Positions 381 through 17,344 of a DNA stretch of 64,000 bases are shown piece by piece. Origin of the DNA: Planctomycetia bacterium (lineage in GTDB: Bacteria; Planctomycetota; Planctomycetia; Pirellulales; JACPPG01); contig JACPPG010000055.1 in assembly GCA_016191115.1 (NCBI GenBank), positions 25,018 to 89,017 on the forward strand. Direction: 5' to 3'. The position numbers were made by a program, and so were the translations under genes. The notes below the pieces were generated by a model. That model saw only the letters and a list, made by a program, of their open reading frames with translations. It searched no databases and was not told the origin of the DNA. Each line of letters starts with the position of its first letter. The stretch's first letter is position 1.

Positions 381-1832
381 TTAGGTCTGGCAATCTTGAC
401 AGACCGGAGCCGTGCCGACCTTGTCGGGCGTCACTTTCATTGGCTCGCCGCATTCCGCGCAGTATTCCCGCACGTACTTTGACCCCGGAATCGGATGCCC
501 ACGATCCGATTGATCGTCGCCCGCATCCGGCGGGGCGACCGCATCAACATCCCGCGAACCGGAGTCGGCACTGACTGTGACGTGCCCTCGCGGCAAATCA
601 GTTTTGTTGCCGCGGGCGAACGCTGCTGCGGTTTGGTACTCCCGGCTTCGCGATAATCGGGACTTGTGTTTACCGACACGGCGGGCGATTTCGGCGTCTG
701 GCCAATCGGGGTGCTCCCGGACAAGGATCATGGCTTCAGCCAACCACTTAGCTTTCGTCGCGTTCTTGGCTTCCCCGGACGTGCCAGGCCGGTCATTGGC
801 GCCCTGGACCGTCGCGCCCTGGACCGTCACGTCAGGCGCCGTCGCGCCCGCGGACTGTCGTGCCTGACCCGCCAGCCAATCACACACAGCCGCGTATTGC
901 TCCGATCGCCGCCGCCATTCGTCGGGATCGGTGGCACCGATTGCCCCTTCGTTTTGCCATCGGAGAGCATGGGGGTTCAGAGGGGCGTCAGGGCTCTCGG
1001 CAACGGCCGATACGATGAGTGCCCATGTTCTCGCCCACTGGCCCTCGGCATCAGCCGTATTCATGGTTTCGGCTGGCCAAGGCAAATCGGCGTCGATCCG
1101 TAGACGACCACTATCGACCGCACGCTTGAACGCGCGGGCCGCCTCGATGCACGTATCGCGGAGCAGCAACGGGGAATCGGCCCGTCGGAACCGTGCTGCG
1201 AGCGACATGAACTCGTGTCTTGTGGGATTCTCGGCAGGCGTGCGGCTGTGCTGGCCTCCACCGCGATTGGCGTCCGGCTCGGTACGCCGCGATCGAATGC
1301 CTTCGGCGATTTGCCCCTCGCGTGCGATCAATGCGATGAACTGCTGCCCATCGAACCGATCGAGCTTTCGCAGACGCATCTGAACCAACTCTTTCCAGTT
1401 CGAGACACGCCCATAGGGAGGCAACCGCACGTGAGTTTTACCGATGGCGGGATTGAACCCGACCAGCGAAGTCGATCCCACCGCTTCGCCAATCTCGTGG
1501 AGAATCCGCTCGGCAACTCGCCACGCAAGCGCGTGATAGCTCGCGGCGCTCAGGCCCATCATGGATTTGATATTCGCGGGCATCGCCTCCGCGAATTCCC
1601 GGACGGCATCCGGCGTATCCTTCTGACCGGCGTATGATTGACATAGCACCTCGATCAAGAACGCCGGGTCGGATGGCGAGTGCTCAGGCGACATAGGGTC
1701 GGGCAGACCGTGCGCCCAGTCGATGAGCTTGGCCGCGTAACCCGCAATGTCTTGTGCCGCGCGGCTGAGGTCTGAAATGTCCGCGTCGCCAGTTCGATCC
1801 AGAAGATCGGCCGGCGGGGAAGAATCCGCCAT
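381..1832 (-). CDS. hypothetical protein with HTH-like segment and C-terminal CxxC..CxxC zinc ribbon
   Basis: Long ORF. Start chosen at the internal ATG (MADSSPPADLL, 1832); the track ORF extends to 1937. The C-terminus reads ...YCAECGEPMKVTPDKVGTAPVCQDCQT (four-Cys ribbon), preceded by WLAEAMILVREHPDWPDAEIARRVGKHKSRLSRS (HTH-like). Contains a perfect 15-nt tandem duplication at 799-828 (GATVQ GATVQ). Confidence 0.5.
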   Translation of the reverse strand: MADSSPPADLLDRTGDADISDLSRAAQDIAGYAAKLIDWAHGLPDPMSPEHSPSDPAFLIEVLCQSYAGQKDTPDAVREFAEAMPANIKSMMGLSAASYHALAWRVAERILHEIGEAVGSTSLVGFNPAIGKTHVRLPPYGRVSNWKELVQMRLRKLDRFDGQQFIALIAREGQIAEGIRSRRTEPDANRGGGQHSRTPAENPTRHEFMSLAARFRRADSPLLLRDTCIEAARAFKRAVDSGRLRIDADLPWPAETMNTADAEGQWARTWALIVSAVAESPDAPLNPHALRWQNEGAIGATDPDEWRRRSEQYAAVCDWLAGQARQSAGATAPDVTVQGATVQGANDRPGTSGEAKNATKAKWLAEAMILVREHPDWPDAEIARRVGKHKSRLSRSREYQTAAAFARGNKTDLPRGHVTVSADSGSRDVDAVAPPDAGDDQSDRGHPIPGSKYVREYCAECGEPMKVTPDKVGTAPVCQDCQT

Positions 1833-1960
1833 GAAAGGGCTCCATTTGGATCGGGCCAGCCCAGGCGCGCGGCGGCCAAATGGAGAAACCGGACCGCGCC
1901 CCAGGGCTGCGTGGCGGCCGGTTTGCAACCCGGCCATGCCGTCCCGGTGCTCGTACTTTA

Positions 1961-2877: not shown

Positions 2878-3603
2878 TCATCGCGGCCGTTGGTAGGCGA
2901 TCTCGCGGAGCAGCTCTCGCTGCTCGCGGACATCCTCTGCTACGTCAATGGCGAGCTGGATGAGTTCGGCAATAGCAAAGCAGGATACGGCCCACGCCGC
3001 TCCAAAGAACAGCCCTATTCCGACTAGCTGCGCATCGGGTCTGCGCCCTTCGAGCAACGGATACGCCACAAATACAAGTAACGTCACAATGACCACCAGC
3101 GTCGCCGATATGCGGAAAATTGAAGCAACGATGTGCAGCGCGCGAAACCGTGGGCTTCGCTGTCGCGCGACGGTGGCGACGCGGCTGGCGTCACTCGTAT
3201 CGGCTGTCGATTTATTTGAGACAGGGCCTTCATGGGCTTGGCCGACTGCTACTGGCGCTGGCCCACGGTTCGTGCGATCGCGTTCGCTTCCAGGCAATGG
3301 CGGTGGTAGGGACGGCTTGCCGTCCAGGGCCGGCGCGACCGCCATGACCGCCGATCGTTTGGCGTCGTTGACCTGCGGTTTGGCCGGCACGACCGCTGCC
3401 GATATCTCGTGGGCTGCGATCGGCTGAGTAGCCTTGACGACTAAACCCTGCACCTGCGACGCGCTGACCCATTTGCCTTCGGCGCTCCTGCGGATCAACG
3501 TGTCCGGGCCGATGGTCCCCCTCTCAGCTTTTGCCTTGAGTTCGGCAGCCGACACCGGTCCGACCATTTCGCCCATGACTTGGAAATACCACTCGCTGGC
3601 CAT
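2878..3603 (-). CDS. GYF_2 (DUF4339)-type domain membrane protein
   Basis: The N-terminus WYFQVMGEMVGPVSAAELKAKAERGTIGPDTLIRRSAEGKWVSASQVQGL matches the GYF_2 pattern (W-Y/F..x..GP.s..eL......G.i..dtlvw..g...W..a..v..L). The C-terminal part has two hydrophobic helices (ATLVVIVTLLVFVAYPLL, GIGLFFGAAWAVSCFAIAELI). Confidence 0.7.
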   Translation of the reverse strand: MASEWYFQVMGEMVGPVSAAELKAKAERGTIGPDTLIRRSAEGKWVSASQVQGLVVKATQPIAAHEISAAVVPAKPQVNDAKRSAVMAVAPALDGKPSLPPPLPGSERDRTNRGPAPVAVGQAHEGPVSNKSTADTSDASRVATVARQRSPRFRALHIVASIFRISATLVVIVTLLVFVAYPLLEGRRPDAQLVGIGLFFGAAWAVSCFAIAELIQLAIDVAEDVREQRELLREIAYQRPR

Positions 3604-3762
3604 TGGTCTCGCCCTCCACAGCTTGCCGTGCGGATTGCAGCACTACGAGTATCGACAGCGGTAAGCGCGATATCAAGCAACCCCTATCGCGTGCCACGCC
3701 GGGCGCCGCACGATTGTTTTGACTGCCGGCTTGTTGTAGGATCGCACGCAAACGCGGTCACG

Positions 3763-4473
3763 ATGGCCAACCCTGCGACGGTCTCTCTCCGTTTTGACAG
3801 AATGTGCATCCGCCTTCGTACTTGCGCCGCGACCGGTTTTGTCCTGATGACGCTCTCGCTCTCTGGTTGCTCGGGCTGCACGCAGAAGTCCGATCCGCGG
3901 ACTCCTGAGCCAGAGCCGCGGCCCAGCGCCTCGACCACCGCTGAGCCCGTTGAGAAGCCAATCGAGCAACCGAAGGGGCAGGATGAAGCAGTCGCCCAGG
4001 ATACCAGCGGATCACCGCCAGGCGATTCCAGCGACGCGGCCCAGCAGGACGACGCGGGTGAGGCAGGAAGCGCGACCGAAGAGAGCGGTAATGCTCGGCC
4101 TGCGCGATCGACCGAATCCGGCAAATCGTCGGGGGTGGCGTCGATTCCAGTCGATGCCAATGACAATTCGGGGGGTGGCGGTGAGCCCGCAACCGGCAAG
4201 TCCCCACCGGGCGGCCCGAAAGACGCTGCGACAGCGCGCCGGCAGGCGACAAAGGCGCTTGACCGTGCCGAGAAGGCAGCAGGCTCCGGAGATTTCGGTC
4301 GTGCGTTTCAGGAAAGTGTCACAGCCTGGCGAAGTGTTTTGCCCTTTCGTGCTGACCCCCAGTGCAAGTCGCTCGCCTCTTCAGCCGAGCAGAAGATGAA
4401 ACAATATGCGGAAGCTGCAAATTCTGCGGTTCCCGAAACGCCGAGCAGCGCCAAGCCGCTCTCGGTGAAATGA
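3763..4473 (+). CDS. putative lipoprotein, low-complexity acidic/Pro-rich with helical C-terminus
   Basis: Internal ATG at 3763 (alternative at 3802). Signal peptide plus lipobox FVLMTLSLSGC, then a Pro/Glu/Ser/Asp-rich linker and a helical C-terminal segment. The upstream part of the track ORF (from 3580) overlaps the start of the minus-strand gene. Confidence 0.5.
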   Translation: MANPATVSLRFDRMCIRLRTCAATGFVLMTLSLSGCSGCTQKSDPRTPEPEPRPSASTTAEPVEKPIEQPKGQDEAVAQDTSGSPPGDSSDAAQQDDAGEAGSATEESGNARPARSTESGKSSGVASIPVDANDNSGGGGEPATGKSPPGGPKDAATARRQATKALDRAEKAAGSGDFGRAFQESVTAWRSVLPFRADPQCKSLASSAEQKMKQYAEAANSAVPETPSSAKPLSVK

Positions 4474-4543
4474 CGCCGTCTTTTTCCGCTGGGATTCCCC
4501 GAAAAGTCGCCGCTATGTGGGGCTGCCCCGTGCGGCAAAATGC

Positions 4544-4618: not shown

Positions 4619-4691
4619 AGGCGGGCTCATTCAGATCGCGGGACGCAGCGATGCGATAGTGGACGACGCGGGCCGACTCCCAACGGAGAGC

Positions 4692-6065
4692 ATGATGGGC
4701 CAGGGGATGAATCGCTCTTCGATTCCCATTCAGTTGCGCGTCACGTGCCCGCATTGCTGGAGCCGCTTTGCGGCCGAAGACGCGCTATGGATTTCGCAGC
4801 ATCCGGACCTTGTTGGCGATCCGCGTCTTGGGACCGATCAGCAGCAGCGATTCCTTCCCACACGCTTCACCGTCGAAGGTGCAGCGATCGACTCCCGCGG
4901 GTTTGCCTGCCACGGATTGGCCTGTCCCAAGTGTCACCTGACCGTGCCTCGGGCGCTCTTCGAGATGGAGCCTCTCTTCATCTCGATTCTGGGCGCGCCC
5001 TCGTGCGGCAAGTCGTACTTTCTTGCCGCCATGTCGTGGCAGCTCCGCAAGACGCTCCCACACTCGTTCTGTATGGCCTTCAGCGACGCCGACCCGGCCA
5101 TGAACCATTACCTCAACGAGTACGAAGAGATTCAGTTCCTCAACCCGAATCAGGACCAGCTCGTCGCCATACGCAAGACCGAAGAGCAAGGCGACCTGTA
5201 CGACACCGTTTTGTACGGCGAGCAGGCGATCCGCTTCCCGCGCCCGTTCATCTTCGCGCTCCGTCCGTTGGAAGGTCACGTGAATTACGGTTCGTCAGCG
5301 CGAATCTCCAAGGGACTCGCGCTCTACGACAATGCGGGCGAAAGCTTCCTGCCGGGCAGCGACACCGCGGCCAGCCCTGTCACGCGACACCTGGCCCTCT
5401 CCCGTGCGCTGATGTTCCTGTTCGATCCGACGCAGGACCGCAGGTTCCGCGAAGCGTGCCGTGGCAAGACAGACGACCCGCAAATGCAGGAGCGATCCGC
5501 CCGGCTTGACCGCGAGCGGCCCGTTCGCCAGGACACGATTCTGCTGGAGGCAGCCGATCGCGTTCGCCGCTATGCCGGGCTGGCCCAAGCGGCCAAGCAC
5601 TCGCGACCCTTGATCGTTGTGGTGACCAAATACGACTGCTGGGCGTCGCTATTGGACAATGAACCGCTCGACGATCCGTGGGTACAAGGCAAACGCCGAC
5701 CCTCATGTGCTCTGGACAAGGAAGTGATTCAGGAGCGATCGCAAAAGCTTCGCAAAGTGCTCTGGCAACTGACGCCCGAAATCGTCGCCGCGGCCGAGGG
5801 GTTTGCTCAGCAGGTGATCTACATCCCAGTCAGCGCCATCGGACGCAGCCCCGAGAGCGACCCGCAAACCGGCGCGCTCGGTATCCGGCCGCGCGACATT
5901 CATCCCCGCTGGGCCGAAGTGCCGCTTCTGTACTTCCTGGCTCATTGGTGTGAGGGAATGATCCCCTACCGCAAGCCGAAGACGCACCGCATTGGGCCTG
6001 ACGATGACAACGACACGGGCACGGTGCCCTTCGGTGCGGCACGGAATCGCCGAGAGACGGCGTGA
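4692..6065 (+). CDS. zinc-ribbon + P-loop GTPase (TRAFAC-like), operon gene A
   Basis: CPHC (4746-4757) and CPKC (4923-4934) form a ribbon. G1/Walker A is GAPSCGKS (4992-5015), G3 is DNAG in LYDNAGE (5328-5339), G4 is TKYD in VVVTKYD (5625-5636), and there is a G5-like PVSAIG. No TM segment. Start is uncertain: TTG 4614, or ATG 4692/4695/4707. Confidence 0.8.
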   Translation: MMGQGMNRSSIPIQLRVTCPHCWSRFAAEDALWISQHPDLVGDPRLGTDQQQRFLPTRFTVEGAAIDSRGFACHGLACPKCHLTVPRALFEMEPLFISILGAPSCGKSYFLAAMSWQLRKTLPHSFCMAFSDADPAMNHYLNEYEEIQFLNPNQDQLVAIRKTEEQGDLYDTVLYGEQAIRFPRPFIFALRPLEGHVNYGSSARISKGLALYDNAGESFLPGSDTAASPVTRHLALSRALMFLFDPTQDRRFREACRGKTDDPQMQERSARLDRERPVRQDTILLEAADRVRRYAGLAQAAKHSRPLIVVVTKYDCWASLLDNEPLDDPWVQGKRRPSCALDKEVIQERSQKLRKVLWQLTPEIVAAAEGFAQQVIYIPVSAIGRSPESDPQTGALGIRPRDIHPRWAEVPLLYFLAHWCEGMIPYRKPKTHRIGPDDDNDTGTVPFGAARNRRETA

Positions 6066-9000
6066 CGATGATCCAGGAAATCTACTACACGTCCGCCCCC
6101 CGCGGTCTAAAGGCTGGCAGCCGAGGGTTCTGCACGGTCGTCAGCACGGCGGGCATGGCCAAGAACCTGGCCGACCGGCTGGAATCGCTTAGCGGATACC
6201 GTCACCTCTTCGGCCCGCAGGACCCGCAGGCGCCGCTGAATCCGGTCGTCTACTCGCACCTGCGGCTGGCAGTGGGAGGACGGCAGTACCACGTCCTCTC
6301 GCGCATCTGCGACGCGGGGCTCGACTATACGCAGCGGACCAACAAGTTTGCTCACCATGTCGTCCTAGATACTGCTGATCTGCCGGCCGGAGGTCCCGCG
6401 TGGCTCTTGTCCTTGCCCGGCTTCGTGCAGGCGACGTGGGACGGCGAGACCCGCACGCTGCCGGGCGGCCGGCGTCCGCCGTCGGGCGACGCACAGGCCG
6501 GAGTGTGCCGCGCTTGGCAACAATTGACCGGCGATGCCGGGTGGGGAGGGGCGCTTGCGGAAACAGCGCTGCCTGGATCGAACCGTCGGGCGGTCGTGGT
6601 CTTCGCACCAGGCATGGACATGTTGCAGTTGGTTGCCGAGGCCCTCGCCCTTCTATCGCCGGAGCAGCGCTGGGAGGTCACGTTCTCCACATATTTCACG
6701 AAGCTGCCGCCGGGCATCGATTGCAAATGGCGGTTCGTGGTCGAAGGTTCGCCGGAGGCCGCTGCCGCCCGGCCGACGCCACAAACGCTGGTCATCAACC
6801 TCTGCTCCAAGCAATCCGCCCCAGCGGCTAGCGCGCTAGCGGTGGCGGCCAGAACGGGCGTTGCACCGAAGTTGTCGGCCGCTCCGGTTTCCGGGTTTCC
6901 CGGCGACGAGCATCCAATGCCTGCCGAGCTTGGCGGCGATACCATCGACGAAGCCGATGAACTCGGGCTTGCGCTACGGCCAGGCGAGAGCCGTAGCGTT
7001 CGTGCACCGGCTGCGGCCAATGTCGGATCGGCGGGCAGTCGCGGGTATGACGTGGGACCCCCGCCGCTGCCGGGCGTGCAACTGGATCGGCTTGGCGCGC
7101 CAACTTCGCGACGCCGATTCGAGAAAAAAAGACCGTGGGGCCTCATTACCGCAGTCGTTGCCCTCTTCGCGGCGGTGGCTGGTGCCGGAATCACGGGTGC
7201 CGTGCTCCTCAGCAAAGGGGCACCTGAGCTTACGAGAAGCAATGAACAGGCCACTCCGGCATCCGCCGGACGTGGAACGCCGAAGGGCGCAGACGTTACG
7301 GACATTGTTCTCACGATTACACCGGTCGCAACACCGATTAACGCTGCCAACGCGATCGGCGCGTCGGCAAGCGGCACAGCCGAGCCTGGCGCCAGCGTCA
7401 GTGTCACGTGCACCGACGACGCAAATCAAAAGACCGACCCCTGCGTCGCGACGGCCGACTCATCTGGCAAATGGACCGCAACCGCTATCGATCTAAGGAG
7501 CCTCAAGGACGGTATGATCACTTTCACCGCTGCTGCTAAAAATGCAGCCGGAAACACTGCTCAGACTAGCGCGACCGCGACCAAGGACGCCGCAGCCCCG
7601 ACAATCTCCATCGCGCCGCTCGCACATCCGATCAATAGGGAGAATGCCGCAAGTGTGTCAGTAAGCGGCACGGCCGAGGCAAACGCAAGTATTTCGTTGA
7701 TAGCCACCGACACCGCAAGTCACAAGAGCGGGCCAAGCACTACTATGGTGGACTCGTCGGGCAAGTGGCACGTGGCCAACGTTAATCTGAACAGTCTCGA
7801 CGACGGGAAGATCACCTTCATGGCTACGGCCGCCGATGCCGCTGGAAACAAGAAGGCGGACAGCATTGAAGCGACCAAGGACACCACACTCCCAACCGTC
7901 GAGATCGCCACGGTTACAACAATCATCAGCGCAGCAAATGCCAAGAACGCGGCCGCTTCCGGCACAACGGAGCCGGGCGCAAGCATCACGATCGTGGCCA
8001 GTGACAGCGAAAATGCACAAAGCCCAATGCGCACGGCGACCGTCGACTCAGGCAACTGGTCAGTGGATGGCATCGACGTGAGCAGTCTCGCCGATGGCGA
8101 AATCAGTTTCGCGGCTACGGCCACAGATAGTGCCGGAAACCATGCCACCGCGACGCGCGCGGTTAAAAAGGCGGGCAATCCGTTCGTTGGTCTACCCGAT
8201 GCTCTTCCGATTCCTCCTTTCGCGAGCAAGAATGACTGTCAAATCCACAACGTCATGGTCTCAGAGAGTCAATTGTCATTGACCATTGATGGTCAAGGGA
8301 TCGTTCAAGATCGGCTAAGCATCTATTGCAAGCGCGACTCACACACAGAGCGCCCGACATGGGGTGTGTACTTTTCTGGGAAAGAAGGAAATGTGGGCGT
8401 GCTTGGTGATGACCCAACCAGAATTGCTCGTTTTGTATTAGACGCAGGAACGCTGAGCTTCTCTTGGGACGCCCGCGTCACGCCCGAGTTCGATTTGCGG
8501 AATTGCGTTCTGATTCTGAGCAGCGAGGGGAACACCTATCCCCTACAACTTCGGTCGGCGGAGTCAAGGTCGGCGCTTTCTGTCCAAAATCTGAAGGATG
8601 ACAACGTCGCTGCGGAAATTGCGCTCGATTCCATGCCGCCCTTTCAGCGGCTAAGGATTCGAGTCAATGGCGTTCGATCGAATGCCAGTGAGCCACTTCA
8701 GGGGCAGACGAAGTCGACAGCGCGGCCGGATCGGGCCGCGGTGGTGGTTCGTTACTCGCTGCAAGACGTACTACAGACGGTTGACGGTATTCGTGCCGCT
8801 CCTCCACCGAAGGAACTGAGACCGCAGACACGCGACGCTTTTGCAGATCGGCTCATGGATGAAATCCGCAAATCCTTCGCCGAGTATGAGCAGTCGGTTG
8901 TGCTGCTCCTGGAACTAGGGCAGGCAAAGAACCGACCGTCGGTTGTTCAGGTGAGGATGCGTTTTGGCAAGGTCACGGGTCGGGCTGTCGATGCCATTTC

Positions 9001-9322
9001 GGACGAAACTATTGACCAGATGTCCAACATCGGTTTTCAGCGGTTACAACCACAAGAAATTAACAAAAGGGCCGGTGCGTTGGCGAGTGAGGTGCTCGGC
9101 GCAGTGCTGAGAATCGATCAGGAAGCAAAAACACGGGACAAATTGCCGGTTTTTCATGACGCGCTTCTAAAAAAAGCGGCCCGCGGTGTGCATGCGCATG
9201 CGCTCCTCGTACTCGTCGACAAGCTCATTGCCTCGCTGGTCGACTATGAGGTGTACATGCCTTTCGAGGAATCGAAGAGTCGCGTGGTATTGGTCCGAAG
9301 CGACGTGAAGAGTGAGTTGTAA
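6062..9322 (+). CDS. bitopic membrane protein: GAP1-N-like cytoplasmic domain, TM, 3 Ig-like repeats, unknown C-terminal domain (operon gene B)
   Basis: The GTG start overlaps the gene A stop (GTGA); an alternative ATG is at 6068. The N-terminus MTMIQEIYYTSAPRGLKAGSRGFCTVVSTAGM follows the (Q)xxYTS..GL..G..GF....S.G opening I associate with GTPase-associated protein 1 N-domains. Next come a Pro/Ala linker, one TM (RPWGLITAVVALFAAVAGAGITGAVLLS, ~7129-7212), three ~96-aa repeats and a ~380-aa C-terminal region. Confidence 0.8.
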   Translation: MTMIQEIYYTSAPRGLKAGSRGFCTVVSTAGMAKNLADRLESLSGYRHLFGPQDPQAPLNPVVYSHLRLAVGGRQYHVLSRICDAGLDYTQRTNKFAHHVVLDTADLPAGGPAWLLSLPGFVQATWDGETRTLPGGRRPPSGDAQAGVCRAWQQLTGDAGWGGALAETALPGSNRRAVVVFAPGMDMLQLVAEALALLSPEQRWEVTFSTYFTKLPPGIDCKWRFVVEGSPEAAAARPTPQTLVINLCSKQSAPAASALAVAARTGVAPKLSAAPVSGFPGDEHPMPAELGGDTIDEADELGLALRPGESRSVRAPAAANVGSAGSRGYDVGPPPLPGVQLDRLGAPTSRRRFEKKRPWGLITAVVALFAAVAGAGITGAVLLSKGAPELTRSNEQATPASAGRGTPKGADVTDIVLTITPVATPINAANAIGASASGTAEPGASVSVTCTDDANQKTDPCVATADSSGKWTATAIDLRSLKDGMITFTAAAKNAAGNTAQTSATATKDAAAPTISIAPLAHPINRENAASVSVSGTAEANASISLIATDTASHKSGPSTTMVDSSGKWHVANVNLNSLDDGKITFMATAADAAGNKKADSIEATKDTTLPTVEIATVTTIISAANAKNAAASGTTEPGASITIVASDSENAQSPMRTATVDSGNWSVDGIDVSSLADGEISFAATATDSAGNHATATRAVKKAGNPFVGLPDALPIPPFASKNDCQIHNVMVSESQLSLTIDGQGIVQDRLSIYCKRDSHTERPTWGVYFSGKEGNVGVLGDDPTRIARFVLDAGTLSFSWDARVTPEFDLRNCVLILSSEGNTYPLQLRSAESRSALSVQNLKDDNVAAEIALDSMPPFQRLRIRVNGVRSNASEPLQGQTKSTARPDRAAVVVRYSLQDVLQTVDGIRAAPPPKELRPQTRDAFADRLMDEIRKSFAEYEQSVVLLLELGQAKNRPSVVQVRMRFGKVTGRAVDAISDETIDQMSNIGFQRLQPQEINKRAGALASEVLGAVLRIDQEAKTRDKLPVFHDALLKKAARGVHAHALLVLVDKLIASLVDYEVYMPFEESKSRVVLVRSDVKSEL
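7316..8182 (+). repeat. three tandem ~96-aa Ig-like coding repeats inside gene B
   Basis: Units at 7316-7603, 7604-7897 and 7898-8182. Shared pattern: I.....PI...NA...s.SGTAEpgAS.......d.........t..aDSSGkW......l.SL.DG.ItF.A.A.DaAGN.a....a.KD...PT. Confidence 0.85.
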
Positions 9323-9325
9323 GCG

Positions 9326-12283
9326 ATGCTCGACCATCAAAGAATTGTTGACGACATCCGCAGCGCCATGTACTCGGTGACGCCCGAGTCGTTGGACATG
9401 CTGCGCTTGGCCGTCGCAGATTATTCGGTCGCATGTGATGAGACGAACGAGCGGTTGCGGCAATGCAATTCGCTCCTCAAGCAGGGACTGCGGAGTGAGG
9501 CGATCCAGGCGTGCGAGGTCGAGCCGAACCTGCTCGACGTAGTGGCAACGCTTGACTTTGCTGAGCGCGACCAACTGGTGGCTATTACCCAGCAAAATGG
9601 CCTCGCGGTTCCGCCAGGATTGTCGATGGAGGTGGCGTCGGAACTCAATGAGGCGTACGCGATCCAGGCGCCCCTCGAATCGCTGTTGCGTCAGCACCGT
9701 CTGCTGGCAATCGCGCGCGGGCCGCTGGCCCCGAGGCTCAAGACGCTGCGGTCGATCGCGCGTCTCGACAAGCACAACTTCGTCTGGCAGGACGATGTCC
9801 GGCTCTTTGAAAAGGAACGTCTCAAGGAGATTCAGCGCGAGGCGAATCAGGCGGCAAAGGCGGGCGAAGTGGCCGTGCTCGACTCTCTGGCCGAGGAGTT
9901 GGCCGACAAGCAGTGGCAGCAAAAACCTCCGAAGGAGCTAGTCCAGGGAGTCGGTGAAATCGCGCATAGGGTCCGCCACAAGCAGACACGCAAGGAGCTT
10001 GAGGAGTTGGAGCCCGCGCTCAACAGCGCCTTTGCTGCATTCGATGTCGAGGAGGGGCGACGCTTGCGCGGGCGATGGAACGAATGCGTCGAGATTCTCC
10101 CACTCGAAGGCGACCCGCTCGCCGACCGTGTCGCGCCGGCGCTCGACTGGCTGCGCGAACAAGACGAGCAGGAAGAGCGATTGGGGAATCATGAGGCGTG
10201 CGTGGGCGCTTTGGAGTTTGCGCTTGATCGCCATGACCACACCATCGCCGAGCTGGAGCGCTTGTACCATGCGGCCGTGCGTCACGGCCACGATCTGTCG
10301 TCGTTCCTGGAGCGGCGCTATCAGGCCAAGATCAAGGGGTTGGAGTTTGCGGCGCGGCGGCGATCGGTGCTCATCATCACGTCGGTAGTGAGTGTCGTTG
10401 TGCTAGTCGCCGGCGTGCTGGCTGCAATGGCCTGGATGCATCACCGCTCCAATGAACTCGCCGGTCACGTGGCCGCGCTCTCTCAGTTGATTACCGACGG
10501 GAAGCTGCACGAATCGCAAAAGTACGCCGACGAATTGACTCAGTCGTCACCGCGGATCGCACACAGCCCAGAAATCGAGAAACTGGTGGTTCGACTCGAC
10601 GAGGATGTGAAGAAGGAACAGTCGCGGCAAGAGCAGTTCCAGCATGCGATTGCGCGGGTGAAGGCCGCCGGTTTTGACGAGCCGGATCACGATGCCCTGA
10701 AACGCGCCGAAGAGTCGGCTAAGACTCCGGCGGAGCGCACCGAGGTGGCCGAAGCGAAGGAGAGCATCGCCAAAGCGTTGCGAGAGAGGCAGGCAGAACG
10801 GGACAAGGCATTTTTGGCGGACATTGACGGCCTGGCCGACAAGGTCAAACAACTGGAAGGGGAGTTAGAGAAGTCCGGCGCGGACGATGATGCAGCGAGC
10901 GTGCAGCACTTTGCTCAGCTTCGAGCCGAGCTATCGGCGTTGAACGCCCGCGGGGAGCTGGTGACGCCGGCGGTGCGAAATCAGTTGAAACCATTGTCGA
11001 CGCGCCTGTCGGCATTGGAGGAAATGGTTTCACGCCATGCGAAGGCACAGGCGGCGCTCAATCAACTGATGAAGGCTGTTGGCGACCCCCAGGCGTACCA
11101 GATGGCCCTGCAAGATTACGTCAAACAACATCCCGAAAGTCCCCACGCCGCGTCCTTTCAGCATGTGAGCGCCGAAGCGCCGTTGTGGGAAGGCATGCAA
11201 CGGTGGGATGCTTTCGCCGTTGACTTGGGAAAAGCGGCCCGCGACGGCCTGACGCCCGCCGAAGGGAAAACGCTTCAAGACGGGGCTGACAAGCTGTTGA
11301 AGGAACTCGGCCAGTTTCCGCAGGCCGGGACGCTGCGAACCGCGCTTCCGCATCTGAAATCCGTTGTCGCCCGAATCGGCAGCGACGGCCCGCTCCACAA
11401 GCCGCTTGTGACGCTCTTCAACGATCGGCTGATTCATAACGTTCAGATGATTGAACACAAGGACGGAAGGCGCTGGTACACGGACAAGGAGCCAAGTGTT
11501 CGCGCGGACGGCGTGGACATCGAATTCCTGGCCGGGTTCGACTACTCGCATAAGCACAAGCCTCTTACATCTGGTGAAATCGCCAGTCGAGATCGAGCGC
11601 CGCAAGCGGTCGTCGCCGACAAGGTTCTTGCGGAACTCGGAAAGCTGGACGCAGCCACGCGCGAGGGAGAGTGGGAGCAGCACTTCGCCAACATCTTGGT
11701 TGCAATTTGCGAAGAACAGCGCATGGAACCGATCCTCAAGATTGCCCTGTTGAAGCGAGTAGTCCCAGTCGCCTGCGAGGGGTCCGACGTGTTGCGCTTG
11801 GCGCTGGCGAAACATCAGGAGGCACTGGAAGGCTCGGCCGTCAACGCGCTAGCGCCTTGGATGCTGCCGGAGTTTCCGGAGAAGGACAAAGATGCCAGGA
11901 AGGCCGTCCTTGAAGAGCGAGGACGCGCCAAGGGCGAACTGGAGGCCCTCGCCGACCTGCCCACTACTGTTCAGGTCGCGGCGAAAAAGCCCCCGCCCGT
12001 TCTCCGGCTGAACGAATATCGGTGGATCGGTCTGCTGGTCAAAGACTCCAAGGGCGGATGGACATGCATGATCCGTCCTAATGCTACGACCTCTCCAGGT
12101 GCCTTGTATGTCGTCGAGCAGCCAGCGGGACAGAAGCCCGTGAACATCTCGCCTATCGGCCACCTCGAAGACGGGAAGCCGCACCTTGATTCATTCAAGC
12201 CGGCCCTCCTCATGGAAGGGCGTCCGATCTATTTGCTGATGACTGCCGGCAAGGACCAGCAGGCCGCAGCGGTTCATCGATAG
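9326..12283 (+). CDS. 985-aa all-helical bitopic membrane protein with extensive coiled coil (operon gene C)
   Basis: ATG lies 3 nt after the gene B stop. About 345 aa of helical cytoplasmic region, then a positive-inside TM (ARRRSVLIITSVVSVVVLVAGVLAAMAWM), then ~600 aa with charged heptad-like stretches (EDVKKEQSRQEQFQHAIARVKAA, ADKVKQLEGELEKSG...). No enzymatic motif seen. Confidence 0.75.
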   Translation: MLDHQRIVDDIRSAMYSVTPESLDMLRLAVADYSVACDETNERLRQCNSLLKQGLRSEAIQACEVEPNLLDVVATLDFAERDQLVAITQQNGLAVPPGLSMEVASELNEAYAIQAPLESLLRQHRLLAIARGPLAPRLKTLRSIARLDKHNFVWQDDVRLFEKERLKEIQREANQAAKAGEVAVLDSLAEELADKQWQQKPPKELVQGVGEIAHRVRHKQTRKELEELEPALNSAFAAFDVEEGRRLRGRWNECVEILPLEGDPLADRVAPALDWLREQDEQEERLGNHEACVGALEFALDRHDHTIAELERLYHAAVRHGHDLSSFLERRYQAKIKGLEFAARRRSVLIITSVVSVVVLVAGVLAAMAWMHHRSNELAGHVAALSQLITDGKLHESQKYADELTQSSPRIAHSPEIEKLVVRLDEDVKKEQSRQEQFQHAIARVKAAGFDEPDHDALKRAEESAKTPAERTEVAEAKESIAKALRERQAERDKAFLADIDGLADKVKQLEGELEKSGADDDAASVQHFAQLRAELSALNARGELVTPAVRNQLKPLSTRLSALEEMVSRHAKAQAALNQLMKAVGDPQAYQMALQDYVKQHPESPHAASFQHVSAEAPLWEGMQRWDAFAVDLGKAARDGLTPAEGKTLQDGADKLLKELGQFPQAGTLRTALPHLKSVVARIGSDGPLHKPLVTLFNDRLIHNVQMIEHKDGRRWYTDKEPSVRADGVDIEFLAGFDYSHKHKPLTSGEIASRDRAPQAVVADKVLAELGKLDAATREGEWEQHFANILVAICEEQRMEPILKIALLKRVVPVACEGSDVLRLALAKHQEALEGSAVNALAPWMLPEFPEKDKDARKAVLEERGRAKGELEALADLPTTVQVAAKKPPPVLRLNEYRWIGLLVKDSKGGWTCMIRPNATTSPGALYVVEQPAGQKPVNISPIGHLEDGKPHLDSFKPALLMEGRPIYLLMTAGKDQQAAAVHR

Positions 12284-12306
12284 TGCGCAACGCAGGATCG
12301 ATCAAA

Positions 12307-13212
12307 ATGGCAGACCAGTTGTACATTCGGGTTCGCGGCCGCGTGCTCGGCCCGTACGATCGAGACAAGCTCCAATCGCTGGTCAAGCGCGGCCAACTTG
12401 GGCGCCTTCACGAGGTCTCTGAGGACGGCGTCGCTTGGGTGCGGGCAACGAACTTCCCTGAGATATTCGTGATGCCCTCGGTCGCGGTAGCCGGCCCCTC
12501 GGTGAAGGCACCACCCGCTGCCAGTGAAGTCCCTGGGTACGCGATCGAGCCAGACACGTCCGCGGCGGCTCCGACGGGCCAGACCTGGTACTACACGAGC
12601 GGCGGTGCCCAGCTTGGGCCAGTCGATTTCGCGTTTCTGCAAAAGCTGGCTGCGACGGGTCAACTTGGTCCATCCAATTTGGTGTGGACCGAAGGCATGG
12701 CCGAGTGGGCCGCACCTGGCGCCGTGCCCGGCTTGAACGCGCCGCCCGCCACGGGCCGGTCTGCTACGGCTAACGTTGCCACCGAGTCAGGGAACGCCGT
12801 CACGCCTGGTGTGTGTCGGGCGCTCGCCGGATCGCGGCGCTGGATTCTCTTTCTCGCCATCGTGACGTTTGTCTACTGCGGATTCTATGCCGTCTTGGGG
12901 GTCTGGGCGGTCGTATTCGGCTTTTCGTCGGACATTGCGGCTATCGTAGGTGAGGGTCTCTTCTTCCTCTCGACCGCTGCGGTCGGTGCCGCTGCCGGAG
13001 TGCTGCTGCTCTTCTATGCCAATCGGATTGGGGTCCTACAGTTCCGCCGCGATTTCCAGCAGTTGGAATCGACGCTTGAGGCGGCGCGCTGGTTTTGGGT
13101 ATATGCGGGCATCATCCAGATTGCCTTCCTGATATTCCTGTCGGCGTTGAGCGTCTGGGCGATGGCCGTCGGCGGCGCAACGGTGCGGGCGAGCGCCCGA
13201 TCGCTGTTCTGA
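12307..13212 (+). CDS. double GYF_2-domain polytopic membrane protein (operon gene D)
   Basis: ATG at 12307; the track ORF starts at a GTG at 12283 overlapping the gene C stop. Two GYF_2-like modules (LYIRVRGRVLGPYDRDKLQSLVKRGQLGRLHEVSEDGVAWVRATNF and TWYYTSGGAQLGPVDFAFLQKLAATGQLGPSNLVWTEGMAEWAAPGAVPGL) are followed by ~4 hydrophobic helices. Confidence 0.75.
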   Translation: MADQLYIRVRGRVLGPYDRDKLQSLVKRGQLGRLHEVSEDGVAWVRATNFPEIFVMPSVAVAGPSVKAPPAASEVPGYAIEPDTSAAAPTGQTWYYTSGGAQLGPVDFAFLQKLAATGQLGPSNLVWTEGMAEWAAPGAVPGLNAPPATGRSATANVATESGNAVTPGVCRALAGSRRWILFLAIVTFVYCGFYAVLGVWAVVFGFSSDIAAIVGEGLFFLSTAAVGAAAGVLLLFYANRIGVLQFRRDFQQLESTLEAARWFWVYAGIIQIAFLIFLSALSVWAMAVGGATVRASARSLF

Positions 13213-13236
13213 GGGATCGTTCGGAGCTAGCGCACA

Positions 13237-14103
13237 ATGCCTCAGGATGCAACGCCCCCGAACAACGACGTACCACTCGCCTGGGCACGTGGCGACATCG
13301 AGCAGCGCCTTGGCTTCCACGGCGGGCGCTATACGCGCGTCAATACGCTGCTTTCGTTTCTGATTGGTGCTGGATTGACGGTCCTATTTTTCGGCGCCTT
13401 GTTCCCCTTCCGAGGAACGAACGTTGCCGCGACCTTCATGGACCGAGGGCCGACACCTTACGTGACCATGCTGCTGGCGTGGTGGTCGGTGGCGATCCTG
13501 TTCTTGAAGTCGCGCAAGCTCGCGTTTCAGCAACGGGCGCTGGCGTACCAGGTTGTGCCGGAGAGTCACGATTTCGTGCTGTCCGCCGCGACCGCCGACC
13601 AGGTGCTGGAGCGAATCTACGCCACGGTAGACGACCCGAAGAAGTTCGTGCTCTTTAACCGAATCGTCATTGCGCTCTCGAACTTGAGGAACCTCGGCCG
13701 GGTGTCCGACGTGGACGACATCCTCCGTTCGCAGGGGGACGGTGAAGAATCGTCGATGGAGACCAGCTATTCGATCGTGCAGGGGTTTGTTTGGGCGATC
13801 CCGGTGCTGGGCTTCATTGGCACGGTATTGGGCTTGTCCGAAGCCATCGGGGCATTCGCGAGTGTGCTTGGTTCGGCATCGGAGGTGTCGGAAATCGCGG
13901 GTGCATTGCGCGGCGTCACCGCCGGCCTCTATACCGCCTTCGACACGACGCTCGTGGCGCTTGTTGCCGCGCTCATCATTCAGATCGTTCTCACGTTCTT
14001 GAAAAAAAACGAAGAGGAATTCCTTGATGCTTGCGCGGAGTATTGCGTCCGCAACGTGGTTGGGCGTTTGCGGGTGATGCCCTTCGAGACTGAGGTGGAA
14101 TAG
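13237..14103 (+). CDS. MotA/TolQ/ExbB-family proton channel subunit (operon gene E)
   Basis: Four predicted TMs. The C-terminal half, FVWAIPVLGFIGTVLGLSEAIGAF...LRGVTAGLYTAFDTTLVALVAALIIQIVLTFL, matches the conserved GxxGTVxGxxxAF ... TTxxGLxVA core of MotA_ExbB proteins. Confidence 0.85.
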   Translation: MPQDATPPNNDVPLAWARGDIEQRLGFHGGRYTRVNTLLSFLIGAGLTVLFFGALFPFRGTNVAATFMDRGPTPYVTMLLAWWSVAILFLKSRKLAFQQRALAYQVVPESHDFVLSAATADQVLERIYATVDDPKKFVLFNRIVIALSNLRNLGRVSDVDDILRSQGDGEESSMETSYSIVQGFVWAIPVLGFIGTVLGLSEAIGAFASVLGSASEVSEIAGALRGVTAGLYTAFDTTLVALVAALIIQIVLTFLKKNEEEFLDACAEYCVRNVVGRLRVMPFETEVE

Positions 14104-14105
14104 AA

Positions 14106-14927
14106 ATGGCCAGACGCCACCGATCCTCGCCCTTCTCGCTATTCAGCTTTCAGGACATCATCACGTCCGTCACTGGCATCATCATCCTTCTGACGCTCAT
14201 CTTGGCCTTGGAGCTGGTGACTCGCAAACCGTCTGCACAGGGGGGCAGCTCTCCTGACAATTCCGAACAGTTGAGGGAAAGCATCGCGGAAGCCGCCGCA
14301 GAGAGCGCGCAGCTCGAAGAAGCGCTTGAGAAGCGAACTGCTAGGGTGCAAGAACTGGCGGCCGCCTCTCCACAGCAGCTTGCCCGCGAGAAACGCGACG
14401 TTGAACAGGAAGTACAGCGTCTTGAAGCGGAGGTCCAGCAACTCGTGCGGCAGGCAGAAACCACCTCGCGCGAGAAAAAAGAGGCCGTCGCAAAAAGTGA
14501 GGATCGCGAACTCGACCGTAAGGAACTGAAGCAGCGTGAGGCGACATTGCGATCCTTGGCCGAAAAACTCAAGGACTTGAAGCGCAAAGATCACCTCATC
14601 TACAACCTCAGTCGCGACGCGGGGAAGCGGGCTTGGCTGGTCGATGTCTCGCCAGACAAGTTGGCCGCGGCGCCGCTCGGTGAGGCAGTGCCACCTACTG
14701 TATTTGAGGAGTCGTCGGCTTTCGCGCGGGCTCGCTCGTTCATCGATTTCACCAAGCGGCGAGACCCAAAGACCGAGTATTTTGTCTTCCTTATCAGACC
14801 GGCTGCCGTCGAGACGTTTGCCGACATTCGCTTGAAGCTTGAGGGTTCGGGCTTTGATATCGGGTTTGATGTTATCGGTTCGGGCCAGACCGTTCTTGAC
14901 CCAAAGACGGGGGCTTCGATCCGATGA
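14106..14927 (+). CDS. ExbD/TolR-like single-pass subunit with long coiled-coil insert (operon gene F)
   Basis: Basic N-terminus MARRHR, then FSLFSFQD(17)IITSVTGIIILLTLILAL, with the Asp preceding the TM as in ExbD D25/TolR D23. About 130 aa of coiled coil follow (QLEEALEKRTARVQELAA...VQRLEAEVQQLVRQ). The C-terminal YFVFLIRPAAVETFADIRLKLEGSGFDIGFDVI resembles the ExbD periplasmic beta-alpha-beta unit. Confidence 0.65.
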   Translation: MARRHRSSPFSLFSFQDIITSVTGIIILLTLILALELVTRKPSAQGGSSPDNSEQLRESIAEAAAESAQLEEALEKRTARVQELAAASPQQLAREKRDVEQEVQRLEAEVQQLVRQAETTSREKKEAVAKSEDRELDRKELKQREATLRSLAEKLKDLKRKDHLIYNLSRDAGKRAWLVDVSPDKLAAAPLGEAVPPTVFEESSAFARARSFIDFTKRRDPKTEYFVFLIRPAAVETFADIRLKLEGSGFDIGFDVIGSGQTVLDPKTGASIR

Positions 14928-15835
14928 GTAGACGCAAGCGCCAACCCGAAAGCAGTCTGGAGCTGCTGCTGGACACGATTTGCAACACGTTCGGTGGCAT
15001 CCTCTTCTTGTCGATCTTGATCGTCGTCCTGTTGCAGATGACGGGCGGTGCACGATCGAAGACGGCCGAGCCGACCTTGTCGGCTGCTGAGTTGGCGGAT
15101 TTGCGTCGGCAGCACGCCGAGGCACTCCGGCATTTGGAGACAGTGCAGGCTGCGATTGACAAGCAGCGAGACCTGCTCGACCAGTTCGCGACTGCGGAGA
15201 ATGTGGACCTGCTCCGGGAGCTGCAAGCCCTGGAGCAAACGCGGGAGTCGCTGCGGTCGCACCGTGCGGCGACCATCTCCCAAATCGCCGAAGCACAGGC
15301 CAGCGTCGATGCCGTTGAGAGTGACCTCGCCGAACTTGACCAGCATCAGAAGGAACTGGAGCAGCAAGTCGCCGTCGCCGAACGATTGCTTCAGGCCGAG
15401 GTTGCGTCTCGGACCACCGCAGCCCGCCTGCCTCGTCAGCACGCTACCGGGAAACAAGAAGTCGGGGTCTTGGTCCGTTACGGCCGGCTGTACCTTTGGC
15501 ACAAATACGATTCCCACGGGCTTCGGCTCGGTCTTAATTTCGACGACATGGTGGTCGTCAAAGAACATGGGACGCGACTGGAAACTGCGCCGAAGCCGTT
15601 TGCCGGCGTGGTCTTGGAGAAGGGAGTCGACGCCGAGCGACGAATCCGGGAGAAGCTCTCCGGCTTCGATCCACGCACGATGTATGTAGCAGTGGTCATT
15701 TGGGAAGACTCGTTTGCGCAGTTCCAGATTCTAAAGAACGTGCTGGTCGAGCGCGGATTAGAGTATCGTCTCATGCCGACCGAAGAAGGCACCGAGATCA
15801 GCGACCACGGCGGCACCGGCAGCCGCGTCCAGTGA
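14924..15835 (+). CDS. second ExbD/TolR-like single-pass subunit with coiled-coil insert, paralog of gene F (operon gene G)
   Basis: ATGA overlap with gene F. MSRRKR...SLELLLD(17)TICNTFGGILFLSILIVVLLQM, then coiled coil (LRHLETVQAAIDKQRDLLDQ...ELDQHQKELEQQVAVAERLLQ). The C-terminal MYVAVVIWEDSFAQFQILKNVLVERGLEYRLMP is ExbD-like. Confidence 0.65.
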   Translation: MSRRKRQPESSLELLLDTICNTFGGILFLSILIVVLLQMTGGARSKTAEPTLSAAELADLRRQHAEALRHLETVQAAIDKQRDLLDQFATAENVDLLRELQALEQTRESLRSHRAATISQIAEAQASVDAVESDLAELDQHQKELEQQVAVAERLLQAEVASRTTAARLPRQHATGKQEVGVLVRYGRLYLWHKYDSHGLRLGLNFDDMVVVKEHGTRLETAPKPFAGVVLEKGVDAERRIREKLSGFDPRTMYVAVVIWEDSFAQFQILKNVLVERGLEYRLMPTEEGTEISDHGGTGSRVQ

Positions 15836-15950
15836 CGGGAACGCGATTCGGGAAGGCGAGGACGCCCTCAAAGCCGAAGGGCACAAAAACGCCAAGCAAG
15901 AGGCCCGCCGGATCGAAGCCGAGCCGCTGGACACGGCCTACCTGGACCAG

Positions 15951-16178
15951 TTGGCGATCCGCGACCACAACCGGCAAGCCGCCAAGGAAGCGGCTGCGGA
16001 GGCTCGGCGGACGTACCGGCCACTCTCACCGCGGGAGCAATTGGAAATGCTGATGCTCGCCCAGCCGATCGGCAGCCCAGAGCGGGCCGCGCTTCAAAGG
16101 CAACTTGACCGGATGGCGAAAAAGAAGCCCCCGAAGGATCGGCCCAGGGCATCCGTCCACGCTGCCGCTCGCCGTTAG
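15951..16178 (+). CDS. hypothetical charged helical peptide (doubtful)
   Basis: 75-aa ORF from TTG. The same frame is open from 15762 and reads as plausible protein (…DALKAEGHKNAKQEARRIEAEPLDTAYLDQLAIRDHNRQAAKE…), but no ATG/GTG/TTG occurs before 15951. Confidence 0.2.
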   Translation: MAIRDHNRQAAKEAAAEARRTYRPLSPREQLEMLMLAQPIGSPERAALQRQLDRMAKKKPPKDRPRASVHAAARR

Positions 16179-16291
16179 CGGGGAATCAATTCGCCAAAAA
16201 ATGTGTGCGATAAGCGAACGGTCTACGGCCCACAGATGCCAGAGATTCGACCCGCCCTCCCCGGTCTTGTCCCGCTTACGGCCGGTAGCCC

Positions 16292-16531
16292 CTACGCCTC
16301 ACCCGCCGCGTCAATCAGCGCCAGGATGGCCCGCCGCATGGGTTCTGGCAGGCGGGGCCAAGCGGCCACCACTCGGGCCAGGTCCGGGTCGGCCGGGGCG
16401 TTTTGTGCGCCAAGTGCGCCGGATTCTGCGCCGCTTTGGTTGCGAACCGTAGATTTTCCCGTAGAATCCGCCTGTTGTTCGACTCCCCGTGGGGTACTAG
16501 GGCACTCGCGCGGCATTGGCATCGCCAGCAT
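16292..16531 (-). CDS. hypothetical protein / gene fragment
   Basis: 79-aa ORF ending ...DPDLARVVAAWPRLPEPMRRAILALIDAAGEA. From memory, this kind of C-terminal tail occurs next to recombinase/mobile genes in planctomycete genomes. Not verifiable here. Confidence 0.3.
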   Translation of the reverse strand: MLAMPMPRECPSTPRGVEQQADSTGKSTVRNQSGAESGALGAQNAPADPDLARVVAAWPRLPEPMRRAILALIDAAGEA

Positions 16532-17314: not shown

Positions 17315-17344
17315 GCCGAAATGCCGCGCCTCGCCGCCATCTCC

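Follow-up and report, generated by a model that had tools for sequence, protein, structure and literature searches.

Which family does a planctomycete GTPase with a built-in zinc ribbon belong to, and with which proteins might it act? The question is raised by an open reading frame (ORF) at positions 4692-6065 of a 64-kb stretch of contig JACPPG010000055.1, from a Planctomycetia metagenome-assembled genome (MAG; GCA_016191115.1); this whole stretch of 64,000 nucleotides is referred to below as the window. Sequence motifs, family profiles, and a structural model indicate that the ORF encodes a GAP1-N2-associated DO-GTPase, a TRAFAC GTPase specific for guanine whose N-terminus carries a four-cysteine ribbon. 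It is the first of seven closely spaced genes, the second of which encodes a GAP1 protein. A DO-GTPase identity combined with a GTP-dependent switch at the membrane is the best overall explanation of the locus, and one that we consider probable.

Family assignment of the ribbon-fused GTPase

The assignment to the DO-GTPases draws on homologs of the window protein, despite a score for the protein itself that falls below the family cutoff. The window GTPase matches Pfam PF19993 (DO-GTPase2) at 22.7 bits (E 8.7e-5; gathering score 27), but the same profile is matched by 51/54 close homologs (E<=0.01) and by 40 of the 59 long family representatives (E<=1e-4, the best at 9.9e-10). The cutoff of 27 is exceeded by one relative, P0130 (31.4 bits), and several relatives bear precomputed PF19993 annotation. 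With GAP1-N2 and GAP1-M domains encoded directly downstream, DO-GTPase proved to be the right choice among the clades suggested for this protein in an initial annotation of the sequence.

The DO-GTPase/GAP1-N2 pair was defined by Kaur, Burroughs, Iyer & Aravind (2020, eLife 9:e52696, PMC7159879), and Pfam models PF19993, PF20013, and PF20014 represent DO-GTPase/GAP1 systems. The text of PMC7159879 gives a glutamate in Walker B (DxxGE) as family-defining, and the window GTPase has it (DNAGE, E217). According to the same text, one or two N-terminal ribbons occur in 60% of DO-GTPases, with GAP1 encoded next; two ribbons are usual in GAP1-N2 systems, and a paralogous GTPase "double" is found in 38% of systems and is hence not obligatory. 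That text also describes a planctomycete GAP1-N2 variant coupled to a protein with two GYF domains and transmembrane (TM) segments; since the 2xGYF gene of this variant is present in the window, the locus belongs to a known kind of system. The ribbon-GTPase architecture was thus already catalogued in 2020, in the text of Kaur et al. The initial annotation had seen in it a "domain swap" relative to the Myxococcus Agl-Glt machinery, but with ribbons on 60% of DO-GTPases this placement is the family norm, and the comparison is reduced to an analogy. A "double GTPase" reading of the locus was dropped because the 64-kb window holds a single copy; related loci likewise have one copy each.

The gene itself is well delimited. 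Its frame is open throughout 4692-6065 and the opposite strand is rich in stops; the ORF starts at an ATG at 4692, immediately preceded by GGAGAG (4685-4690), and its longest form opens at a TTG at 4614. NCBI lists its copy as a 452-residue hypothetical protein (HYX69_17870) of a Planctomycetia MAG. More than 2,000 homologs were found in a 90%-identity database, and 652 clusters at 50% clustering match at E<=1e-30.

In a MAFFT alignment of 271 homologs, the GTPase motifs (Table 1; all coordinates verified by translation) are nearly invariant, which confirms the zinc-ribbon-fused GTPase described in the initial annotation. The ribbon cysteines are kept in 256/256 (C19, C22) and 266/267 sequences (C78, C81), the P-loop in 268/268 (G101) and 268/269 (G106, K107), Thr163 in 268/270, and G3 in 271/271 (D213, G216) and 269/271 (E217). 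K313 and D315 of G4 are each present in 269/270 and S381 of G5 in 257/268; the first position of [NT]KxD alone is loose (T179, S34, N19, P16, A14). Such near-invariance of G1-G5 together with the four cysteines shows that the motif set is under selection and is no product of chance.

The long G3-G4 insert that had been pointed out earlier amounts to ~35 extra residues (245-279) relative to Ras-like proteins, lies between beta4 and beta5, and is strongly conserved (D245 in 271/271, Q280 in 269/271). An insert of similar size follows between G4 and G5 (~66 residues from G4 to G5, partly in helices at 343-371). The 55 residues between the zinc knuckles are also conserved (R53 and F54 in 265/265, D67 in 266/266, H37 in 90%, C73 in 93%), and C73, H37, and H82 (94%) might serve as further zinc ligands.

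An AlphaFold2 model built from a 54-sequence alignment (predicted local distance difference test score, pLDDT, 86; predicted template modeling score 0.87) shows residues 16-90 as beta-rich, with each CxxC placed between short strands in the manner of a zinc knuckle. This secondary structure, together with conservation, points to a zinc site at the four cysteines. Residues 31-50 of the ribbon insert are modeled at low confidence, although the inter-knuckle segment is well conserved; this combination is typical of partner-binding segments, so the segment is a candidate for one.

A Foldseek search of the Protein Data Bank (PDB) with the model returned 36 matches at E<=1e-3, all to TRAFAC GTPases (EF-Tu/eEF1A, Gtr1, Rac/Rho, eIF5B) and none to an ATPase. 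The matches to Ras/Rho-type proteins are generic, with TM-scores of ~0.5 normalized to the small GTPase, and a profile of the GTPase family retrieved nothing from the PDB sequences. The other clades that the initial annotation had entertained found no such backing: MglA was not among the 50 best Foldseek matches listed, and neither fold-level nor profile similarity pointed to septins, paraseptins, or dynamin-like proteins.

A conserved operon of membrane proteins

Seven genes with intergenic gaps of -4 to +23 bp occupy positions 4692-15835, encoding in order the GTPase, GAP1, a 985-residue protein (p985), a GYF-TM protein, a MotA/ExbB-family protein, and two coiled-coil proteins (cc273 and cc303). 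Six of the seven encoded proteins have predicted TM helices. The GAP1 start and the GTPase stop share 4 bp (GTGA).

Homologous loci were used to judge how stable this arrangement is. At least 581 species genomes encode a relative of the GTPase, a count only and not a fraction of Planctomycetota genomes, and 80 genomic loci were fetched from species-representative genomes. Wherever a label is informative, it points to Planctomycetota (Pirellulales, Planctomycetales, Gemmatales, Isosphaerales, and one Tepidisphaerales MAG), and cultured carriers include Rhodopirellula baltica, Stieleria, Singulisphaera, Botrimarina, and Allorhodopirellula. For 48 loci the downstream sequence extends over >=9.9 kb; GAP1, p985, and GYF genes follow in the same order in 43 of these, MotA in addition in 22, and the full set of seven genes is present in 15. 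One Pirellulales locus (L084) has a gene order identical to that of the window. When the system was approached from the MotA side, all four close metagenomic relatives of MotA with enough upstream flank had the system upstream, but this linkage test is small because the scan yielded only 6 loci. The neighbor-joining tree of the GTPase largely tracks family-level taxonomy, and GTPase and MotA identities across orders are 50-72%. The operon is conserved across Planctomycetia and looks mostly vertically inherited. A GTPase of 59% identity was also seen on a 1.8-kb contig of a Betaproteobacteria MAG (L024), probably through a binning error and not through horizontal transfer.

GAP1 lies downstream of the GTPase in 70/77 eligible loci. 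It is conserved over its first ~250 residues only; past about residue 400 no match was found in 75 loci, and the C-terminal ~390 residues have no relatives in the 75 other loci with a GAP1 match. Comparison with the closest relative gives 66% identity for the GAP1 tail, against 84-99% for adjoining genes. The text of PMC7159879 mentions a rapidly evolving FNIII-type repeat component in GAP1-N2 systems. The fn3 Pfam model has no match in the window, though one fused relative carries it, and no DNA tandem repeats underlie the three Ig-like repeats of GAP1. The protein also gave no match to the GAP1-C domain. In a compact, Fuerstiella-type variant (L059, L066, L072, L073, L076, L078, L080), GAP1 has ~364-407 residues and ends after the TM helix, the p985 match is confined to the N-terminal domain, and the GYF gene comes immediately next.

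The p985 gene is present in 53/58 eligible loci. Its product is modeled with an all-alpha cytoplasmic domain at the N-terminus (1-345); beyond the TM helix (348-366) come a long coiled coil and a C-terminus of alpha/beta type. The query has no Pfam match and none of the 120 homologs listed has a precomputed Pfam domain; a p985 profile retrieved only coiled-coil noise from PDB sequences, and Foldseek with the AlphaFold2 model (pLDDT 86.7) returned generic helical repeats and no meaningful PDB neighbor. No family could be assigned.

A GYF gene occurs in 47/52 eligible loci. In L001 the GYF protein takes a GYF+trypsin form in place of the GYF-TM form. Trypsin genes also stand beside the system: a GYF_2+trypsin gene divergently upstream in L001 (8693-9805, minus strand) and a Trypsin_2 gene downstream in L084 (20298-21383, plus strand); the window lacks trypsin genes in both places.

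The last three genes resemble a proton-driven motor module. The MotA protein shows weak ZorA matches (E 1e-4). Downstream of it, cc273 and cc303 are paralogue-like, each with one highly conserved N-terminal TM helix that bears an Asp at the cytoplasmic end, a ~120-residue coiled coil, and a small C-terminal domain, and Asp17 of cc303 is invariant in 51 homologs along with N21, G24, and G25. Their position beside a MotA/ExbB protein would correspond to the arrangement of ExbD, TolR, or MotB. However, comparisons of both proteins with ExbD/TolR/MotB were negative (family hidden Markov models against E. coli TolR; Pfam at E<=10), and 51 cc303 homologs searched against Pfam, and a cc303 profile against the PDB, likewise revealed no ExbD/TolR/MotB similarity. 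Since all tests of ExbD/TolR homology were negative, we keep the argument as an architectural one.

Going by the published text, as distinct from the figures, both the motor linkage and p985 appear undescribed. The text of PMC7159879 contains MotA, ExbB, TolQ, and "proton" 0 times, the one supplementary text file of Kaur et al. contains MotA, ExbB, TolQ, GYF, Rhodopirellula, and Singulisphaera 0 times, and a literature search found no later paper on the DO-GTPase or GAP1 families.

Table 1. Coordinates of the ribbon-GTPase, its operon partners, and adjacent upstream genes in the 64-kb window.
Feature	Position	Strand	Basis or remarks
Ribbon-GTPase gene, first of operon, predicted DO-GTPase family	4692..6065	+	457 aa; ORF, translation
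N-terminal beta-rich zinc-ribbon domain, residues 16-90	4737..4961	+	AlphaFold2 model, alignment
Zinc knuckle CPHC	4746-4757	+	C19, C22
Zinc knuckle CPKC	4923-4934	+	C78, C81; 55 residues separate C22 and C78
G1/P-loop GAPSCGKS, residues 101-108	4992..5015	+	
Candidate G2/switch-I threonine, Thr163	5178..5180	+	Loop before strand 170-175
G3/Walker B LYDNAGE	5322..5342	+	E217, family-typical glutamate
Arg-rich conserved insert beta4-beta5, residues 245-279	5424..5528	+	DPTQDxRFR...DPQM...RxRQ; pLDDT 62-77
G4 TKYD	5625..5636	+	K313, D315
G5 SAIG	5832..5843	+	S381
GAP1 partner gene	6062..9322	+	1086 aa; Pfam, TM prediction
GAP1-N2 domain, cytoplasmic	6068-6463	+	Pfam, E 1.1e-28
GAP1-M domain, cytoplasmic	6509-6802	+	Pfam, E 1.6e-16
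PPPLPG motif in the Pro-rich GAP1 linker	7058-7075	+	
GAP1 single TM helix	7154-7210	+	
GAP1 Ig-like repeats, three	about 7370-8161	+	Big_13, Big_6
p985 gene, bitopic protein, no known family	9326..12283	+	985 aa; TM prediction, AlphaFold2
GYF-TM gene, C-terminal hydrophobic TM-rich region	12283..13212	+	309 aa; 2 x GYF_2, E 4e-23
MotA/TolQ/ExbB-family proton-channel gene	13237..14103	+	288 aa; MotA_ExbB Pfam, E 4.7e-11
cc273, single-TM coiled-coil protein	14106..14927	+	273 aa; conserved Asp17 at cytoplasmic end of TM
cc303, single-TM coiled-coil protein, last of operon	14924..15835	+	303 aa
Low-complexity ORF	3580..4473	+	297 aa; C-terminal 70-200 aa recur in other loci
Divergent GYF_2 + 2-TM protein	2878..3603	-	241 aa

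Proposed mechanism

Domain fusions in relatives of the GTPase give some indication of what it may cooperate with. Among the 59 long family representatives, FHA (15), GYF_2 (15), and Ser/Thr kinase (13) domains are fused to the ribbon-GTPase; in the two examined, the FHA-GYF domains of P0143 and the kinase of P0123 are N-terminal to it. One protein, P0126, is a direct fusion of the GTPase to GAP1-N2/M, and an FGE-sulfatase domain is present in another relative. The whole set of fusions, represented by P0123, P0143, P0127, and P0126, speaks for direct cooperation between the GTPase and both GAP1 and GYF domains, and for a phospho-signaling input.

A second indication comes from the linker between GAP1-M and the TM helix, which is otherwise unalignable among orthologues. 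GYF domains bind proline-rich sequences, and the GYF domain of GltJ binds the proline-rich region of AglZ (PMC11135422). PPP occurs in 35/65 GAP1 linkers compared with 13.4 +/- 3.1 in composition-preserving shuffles, and PPP[LMIV] or PP[LMIV]P in 22/65 compared with 5.7 +/- 2.2. PPPLPG appears exactly twice when the 64-kb window is translated in six frames, in the GAP1 linker and, at 3289-3306 (minus strand), in the divergent GYF_2+2TM protein, so both copies belong to proteins of this locus. The linker copy is a candidate GYF ligand.

The fold, the motif conservation, the family assignment, the conserved gene order, and the fusions to GAP1 and GYF are established here, and from them we infer binding partners, a direction of signaling, and a role. 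The GTPase is most likely a GTP-dependent conformational switch at the cytoplasmic face of an inner-membrane, envelope-spanning complex. It would dock on the cytoplasmic GAP1-N2 and GAP1-M domains of the translationally coupled GAP1 protein, with the ribbon and its conserved 55-residue insert as a putative docking module; GAP1 would span the membrane once and display its hypervariable Ig-repeat ectodomain. The fourth protein would enter the complex by its GYF domains, probably through the PPPLPG-type motif in the juxtamembrane linker of GAP1. GTP binding and hydrolysis could then set membrane outputs, namely the GYF-TM protein and, where it is encoded (about half of loci, the window included), the MotA/ExbB channel, which may work with the two Asp-bearing single-TM coiled-coil partners.

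Several observations weigh against parts of this account. The PF19993 score of the window GTPase is under the gathering score (22.7 vs 27 bits), the window has one GTPase gene rather than a "double", and one four-cysteine ribbon with a 55-residue insert takes the place of the two ribbons usual in GAP1-N2 systems. The DO-GTPase family is itself a computational prediction of 2020, with no experimentally characterized member, and the literature search found no follow-up paper. No profile or PDB similarity joins cc273 and cc303 to ExbD, TolR, or MotB. The linker sequences are related to one another, so the contrast with shuffles is indicative and does not amount to a probability, and since the GAP1 of Fuerstiella-type loci has no ectodomain, an external sensor is not universal. 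In addition, six of the 82 loci first analyzed (L045, L063, L067, L071, L079, L081) lack the partners: their GTPases are 51-55% identical, and GAP1, p985, GYF-TM, and MotA were all absent from up to 10 kb on each side. These six may be paralogues in another context; in L067, a 914-residue protein with a Big_13 domain is encoded upstream of the GTPase.

Biological role and alternative readings

A role in surveillance or conflict was proposed in the text of Kaur et al. (2020; PMC7159879). The hypervariable GAP1 ectodomain, trypsin and FGE-sulfatase fusions or neighbors, and the mobile-element flanks of L001, where a transposase and an integrase border the system, are points for such a role. We regard surveillance or conflict and envelope housekeeping as about equally open.

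A possible, though doubtful, extension of the housekeeping view is that the planctomycete operon encodes a lineage-wide, vertically inherited, GTP-gated envelope machine powered by the proton-motive force rather than a mobile immunity system, held together by a GYF-PPPLPG contact and comprising MotA/ExbB with two ExbD-like subunits. The GTPase might then be the spatial or temporal regulator of a non-immune machine comparable to Tol-Pal or Agl-Glt, a proposal that we put forward tentatively. The spread of the system over Planctomycetia orders, cultured genera, and hundreds of species genomes would fit, as would a GTPase tree that largely follows family-level taxonomy, strong conservation of GTPase and MotA, and a fixed gene order. 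Judging by their translations, the window genes that flank the operon, among them msrAB and a DapA-like ORF, resemble housekeeping genes. Furthermore, PADLOC-DB v2 gave no defense match for the core proteins (GTPase, GAP1, p985, and GYF-TM), with only weak ZorA hits on the MotA domain and coiled-coil noise. However, a hypervariable GAP1 ectodomain, with a tail less conserved than the neighboring genes (66% vs 84-99% identity in the closest relative), is awkward for a housekeeping machine, as are the effector-like fusions and neighbors (FGE-sulfatase, trypsin, kinase) and the mobile genes around L001, and the motor genes are missing within 10 kb in half of loci.

We consider it improbable that the locus is an Agl-Glt-like gliding or focal-adhesion system in which the ribbon was swapped from a GltJ-like partner to the GTPase. 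The parts do run parallel, with a GYF membrane protein and a MotA/TolQ channel that two single-TM proteins accompany, much as AglQ and AglS accompany AglR, and ZnR and GYF domains often co-occur in bacteria, planctomycetes included (PMC11135422). The GYF protein also has a weak match to the NCBIfam GltJ model (E 1.3e-5), confined to the GYF domain, but no Glt/Agl NCBIfam model reaches its cutoff. In GltJ it is the linker, not the ribbon, that binds MglA-GTP (PMC11135422), so a ribbon that docks a GTPase would not follow known logic. Moreover, the GTPase is a 457-residue DO-GTPase rather than an MglA-like protein, with MglA outside the 50 best Foldseek matches listed, and a ribbon on the GTPase is usual in its family.

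Many proteins bind nucleic acids through a zinc ribbon, and the initial annotation had allowed for docking of this kind; a GTP-regulated DNA or RNA factor is nonetheless a very unlikely reading. The ribbon (residues 16-91) has no net charge, with 8 K/R and 8 D/E in the translation, and the other six operon products are membrane proteins, with no nuclease, helicase, or helix-turn-helix protein among them, both of which make nucleic-acid binding unlikely. The recurrent fusions to GYF, FHA, kinase, and GAP1 are moreover protein-interaction or signaling modules.

An ATPase, or else a pseudo-GTPase scaffold without activity, is hardly a credible reading: the variable first residue of [NT]KxD (T, S, N, P, A) and the Glu at the position of Ras Gln61 could be read that way, but the P-loop Lys, Walker-B Asp and Gly, the K and D of TKYD, and the G5 Ser are near-invariant among the 271 homologs, the pattern expected of an active guanine-specific enzyme, and no ATPase was matched by fold. 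The cysteine pairs are invariant too, and none of the outcomes that the initial annotation had named as refuting its reading was seen.

Flanking features of the window

Immediately upstream of the operon, the C-terminus of the 297-residue low-complexity ORF is found again immediately in front of the GTPase gene in 8 other loci (L002, L008, L010, L040, L052, L064, L084, L089), and this ORF may be an eighth, loosely conserved component. A terminator-like hairpin lies at its 3' side (4463-4478). Promoter and terminator scans of the window stayed at background level, and Rfam gave no matches in it.

Farther out, a 518-residue protein (381-1937, minus strand) has a C-terminal ribbon (CAEC...CQDC) and a weak match to the HVO_0758 zinc mu-protein family (E 8e-4). 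After the operon, ~1.5 kb (15836-17345) holds only short overlapping ORFs, none convincing. This is followed on the minus strand by a gene that, reading its translation, we take to encode a fused MsrB-MsrA methionine sulfoxide reductase (17345-18484), and by an ORF (19961-20734, minus strand) whose product presumably ends in a PEP-CTERM-like sorting signal (PEPATV...RLRRKK), again by its translation. The single tRNA gene of the window, tRNA-Ser(GCT), was located by ARAGORN at 45843-45920 (plus strand).

Implications

The fusion of a ribbon to a GTPase adds little in itself; the value of the locus is as an entry point to an experimentally untouched family. The planctomycete version suits a first test, with its conserved GTPase and MotA, its fixed gene order, and its occurrence in the cultured genera Rhodopirellula, Stieleria, and Singulisphaera. 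The four cysteines, K107, E217, D315, PPPLPG, and the TM Asp17 offer concrete handles. Learning whether a GTPase gates a proton-driven envelope module would either extend the "conflict system" model or reveal new planctomycete cell biology, in organisms whose envelope and division machinery are poorly understood. Should the envelope-machine reading hold, planctomycetes would have in this operon their own equivalent of Tol-Pal or Agl-Glt, centered on an uncharacterized GTPase family.

Comparison with known systems

Classical TRAFAC GTPases (EF-Tu/eEF1A, Gtr1/Rag, Rho/Rac/Ras) share the core fold and the G1-G5 order with the window GTPase (Foldseek E ~1e-4). They differ from it in sequence (10-16% identity; TM-score ~0.25 normalized to the query), and the window protein has inserts between G1 and G2, G3 and G4, and G4 and G5, an N-terminal ribbon, and Glu at the Gln61 position.

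The proton-driven stators ExbB-ExbD, TolQ-TolR, MotA-MotB, and ZorA-ZorB share a MotA_ExbB domain protein with the window, together with two partners bearing an N-terminal TM helix and Asp. In contrast to the stators, the window partners have a ~120-residue coiled coil and no detectable ExbD/TolR/MotB similarity, and the window module contains no ZorC/ZorD, TonB, TolA, or peptidoglycan-binding domains.

With the Myxococcus MglA/GltJ/AglRQS machinery (Attia et al. 2024, PMC11135422), the locus shares a GTPase switch, zinc-ribbon involvement, a GYF membrane protein that in Myxococcus binds a proline-rich partner, and a TolQ/MotA channel with two single-TM partners. The window GTPase, however, belongs to another family, is 2.3 times larger (MglA has ~195 residues), and carries the ribbon itself; homologs of Glt, AglZ, MglB, and RomRX were not detected, and the similarity to GltJ is confined to the GYF domain. 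The likeness to Agl-Glt is best taken as a resemblance of parts rather than as system homology.

The DO-GTPase/GAP1-N2 systems, as described in the text of PMC7159879, are the closest match. Both have a TRAFAC GTPase with Glu after the Walker-B Gly and an N-terminal ribbon, followed directly by GAP1-N2 and GAP1-M; both have a GAP1 with a C-terminal TM helix and variable beta-sandwich repeats, a membrane-proximal setting, and a GYF+TM partner; and in both, fusions to GAP1, FGE-sulfatase (FGS), and kinase domains occur. The window differs in having a single GTPase, one ribbon with an insert, and no GAP1-C match, and its Ig-like repeats (Big_13/Big_6) form part of GAP1 and not of a separate FNIII protein. 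We regard these departures from the typical description, in the number of GTPases and ribbons and in the repeats, as minor. Inheritance looks mostly vertical here, whereas the published text describes mobile neighborhoods. Relative to that text, the planctomycete operon adds p985, a MotA/ExbB module with two Asp-TM coiled-coil partners, and the candidate GYF-PPPLPG contact.

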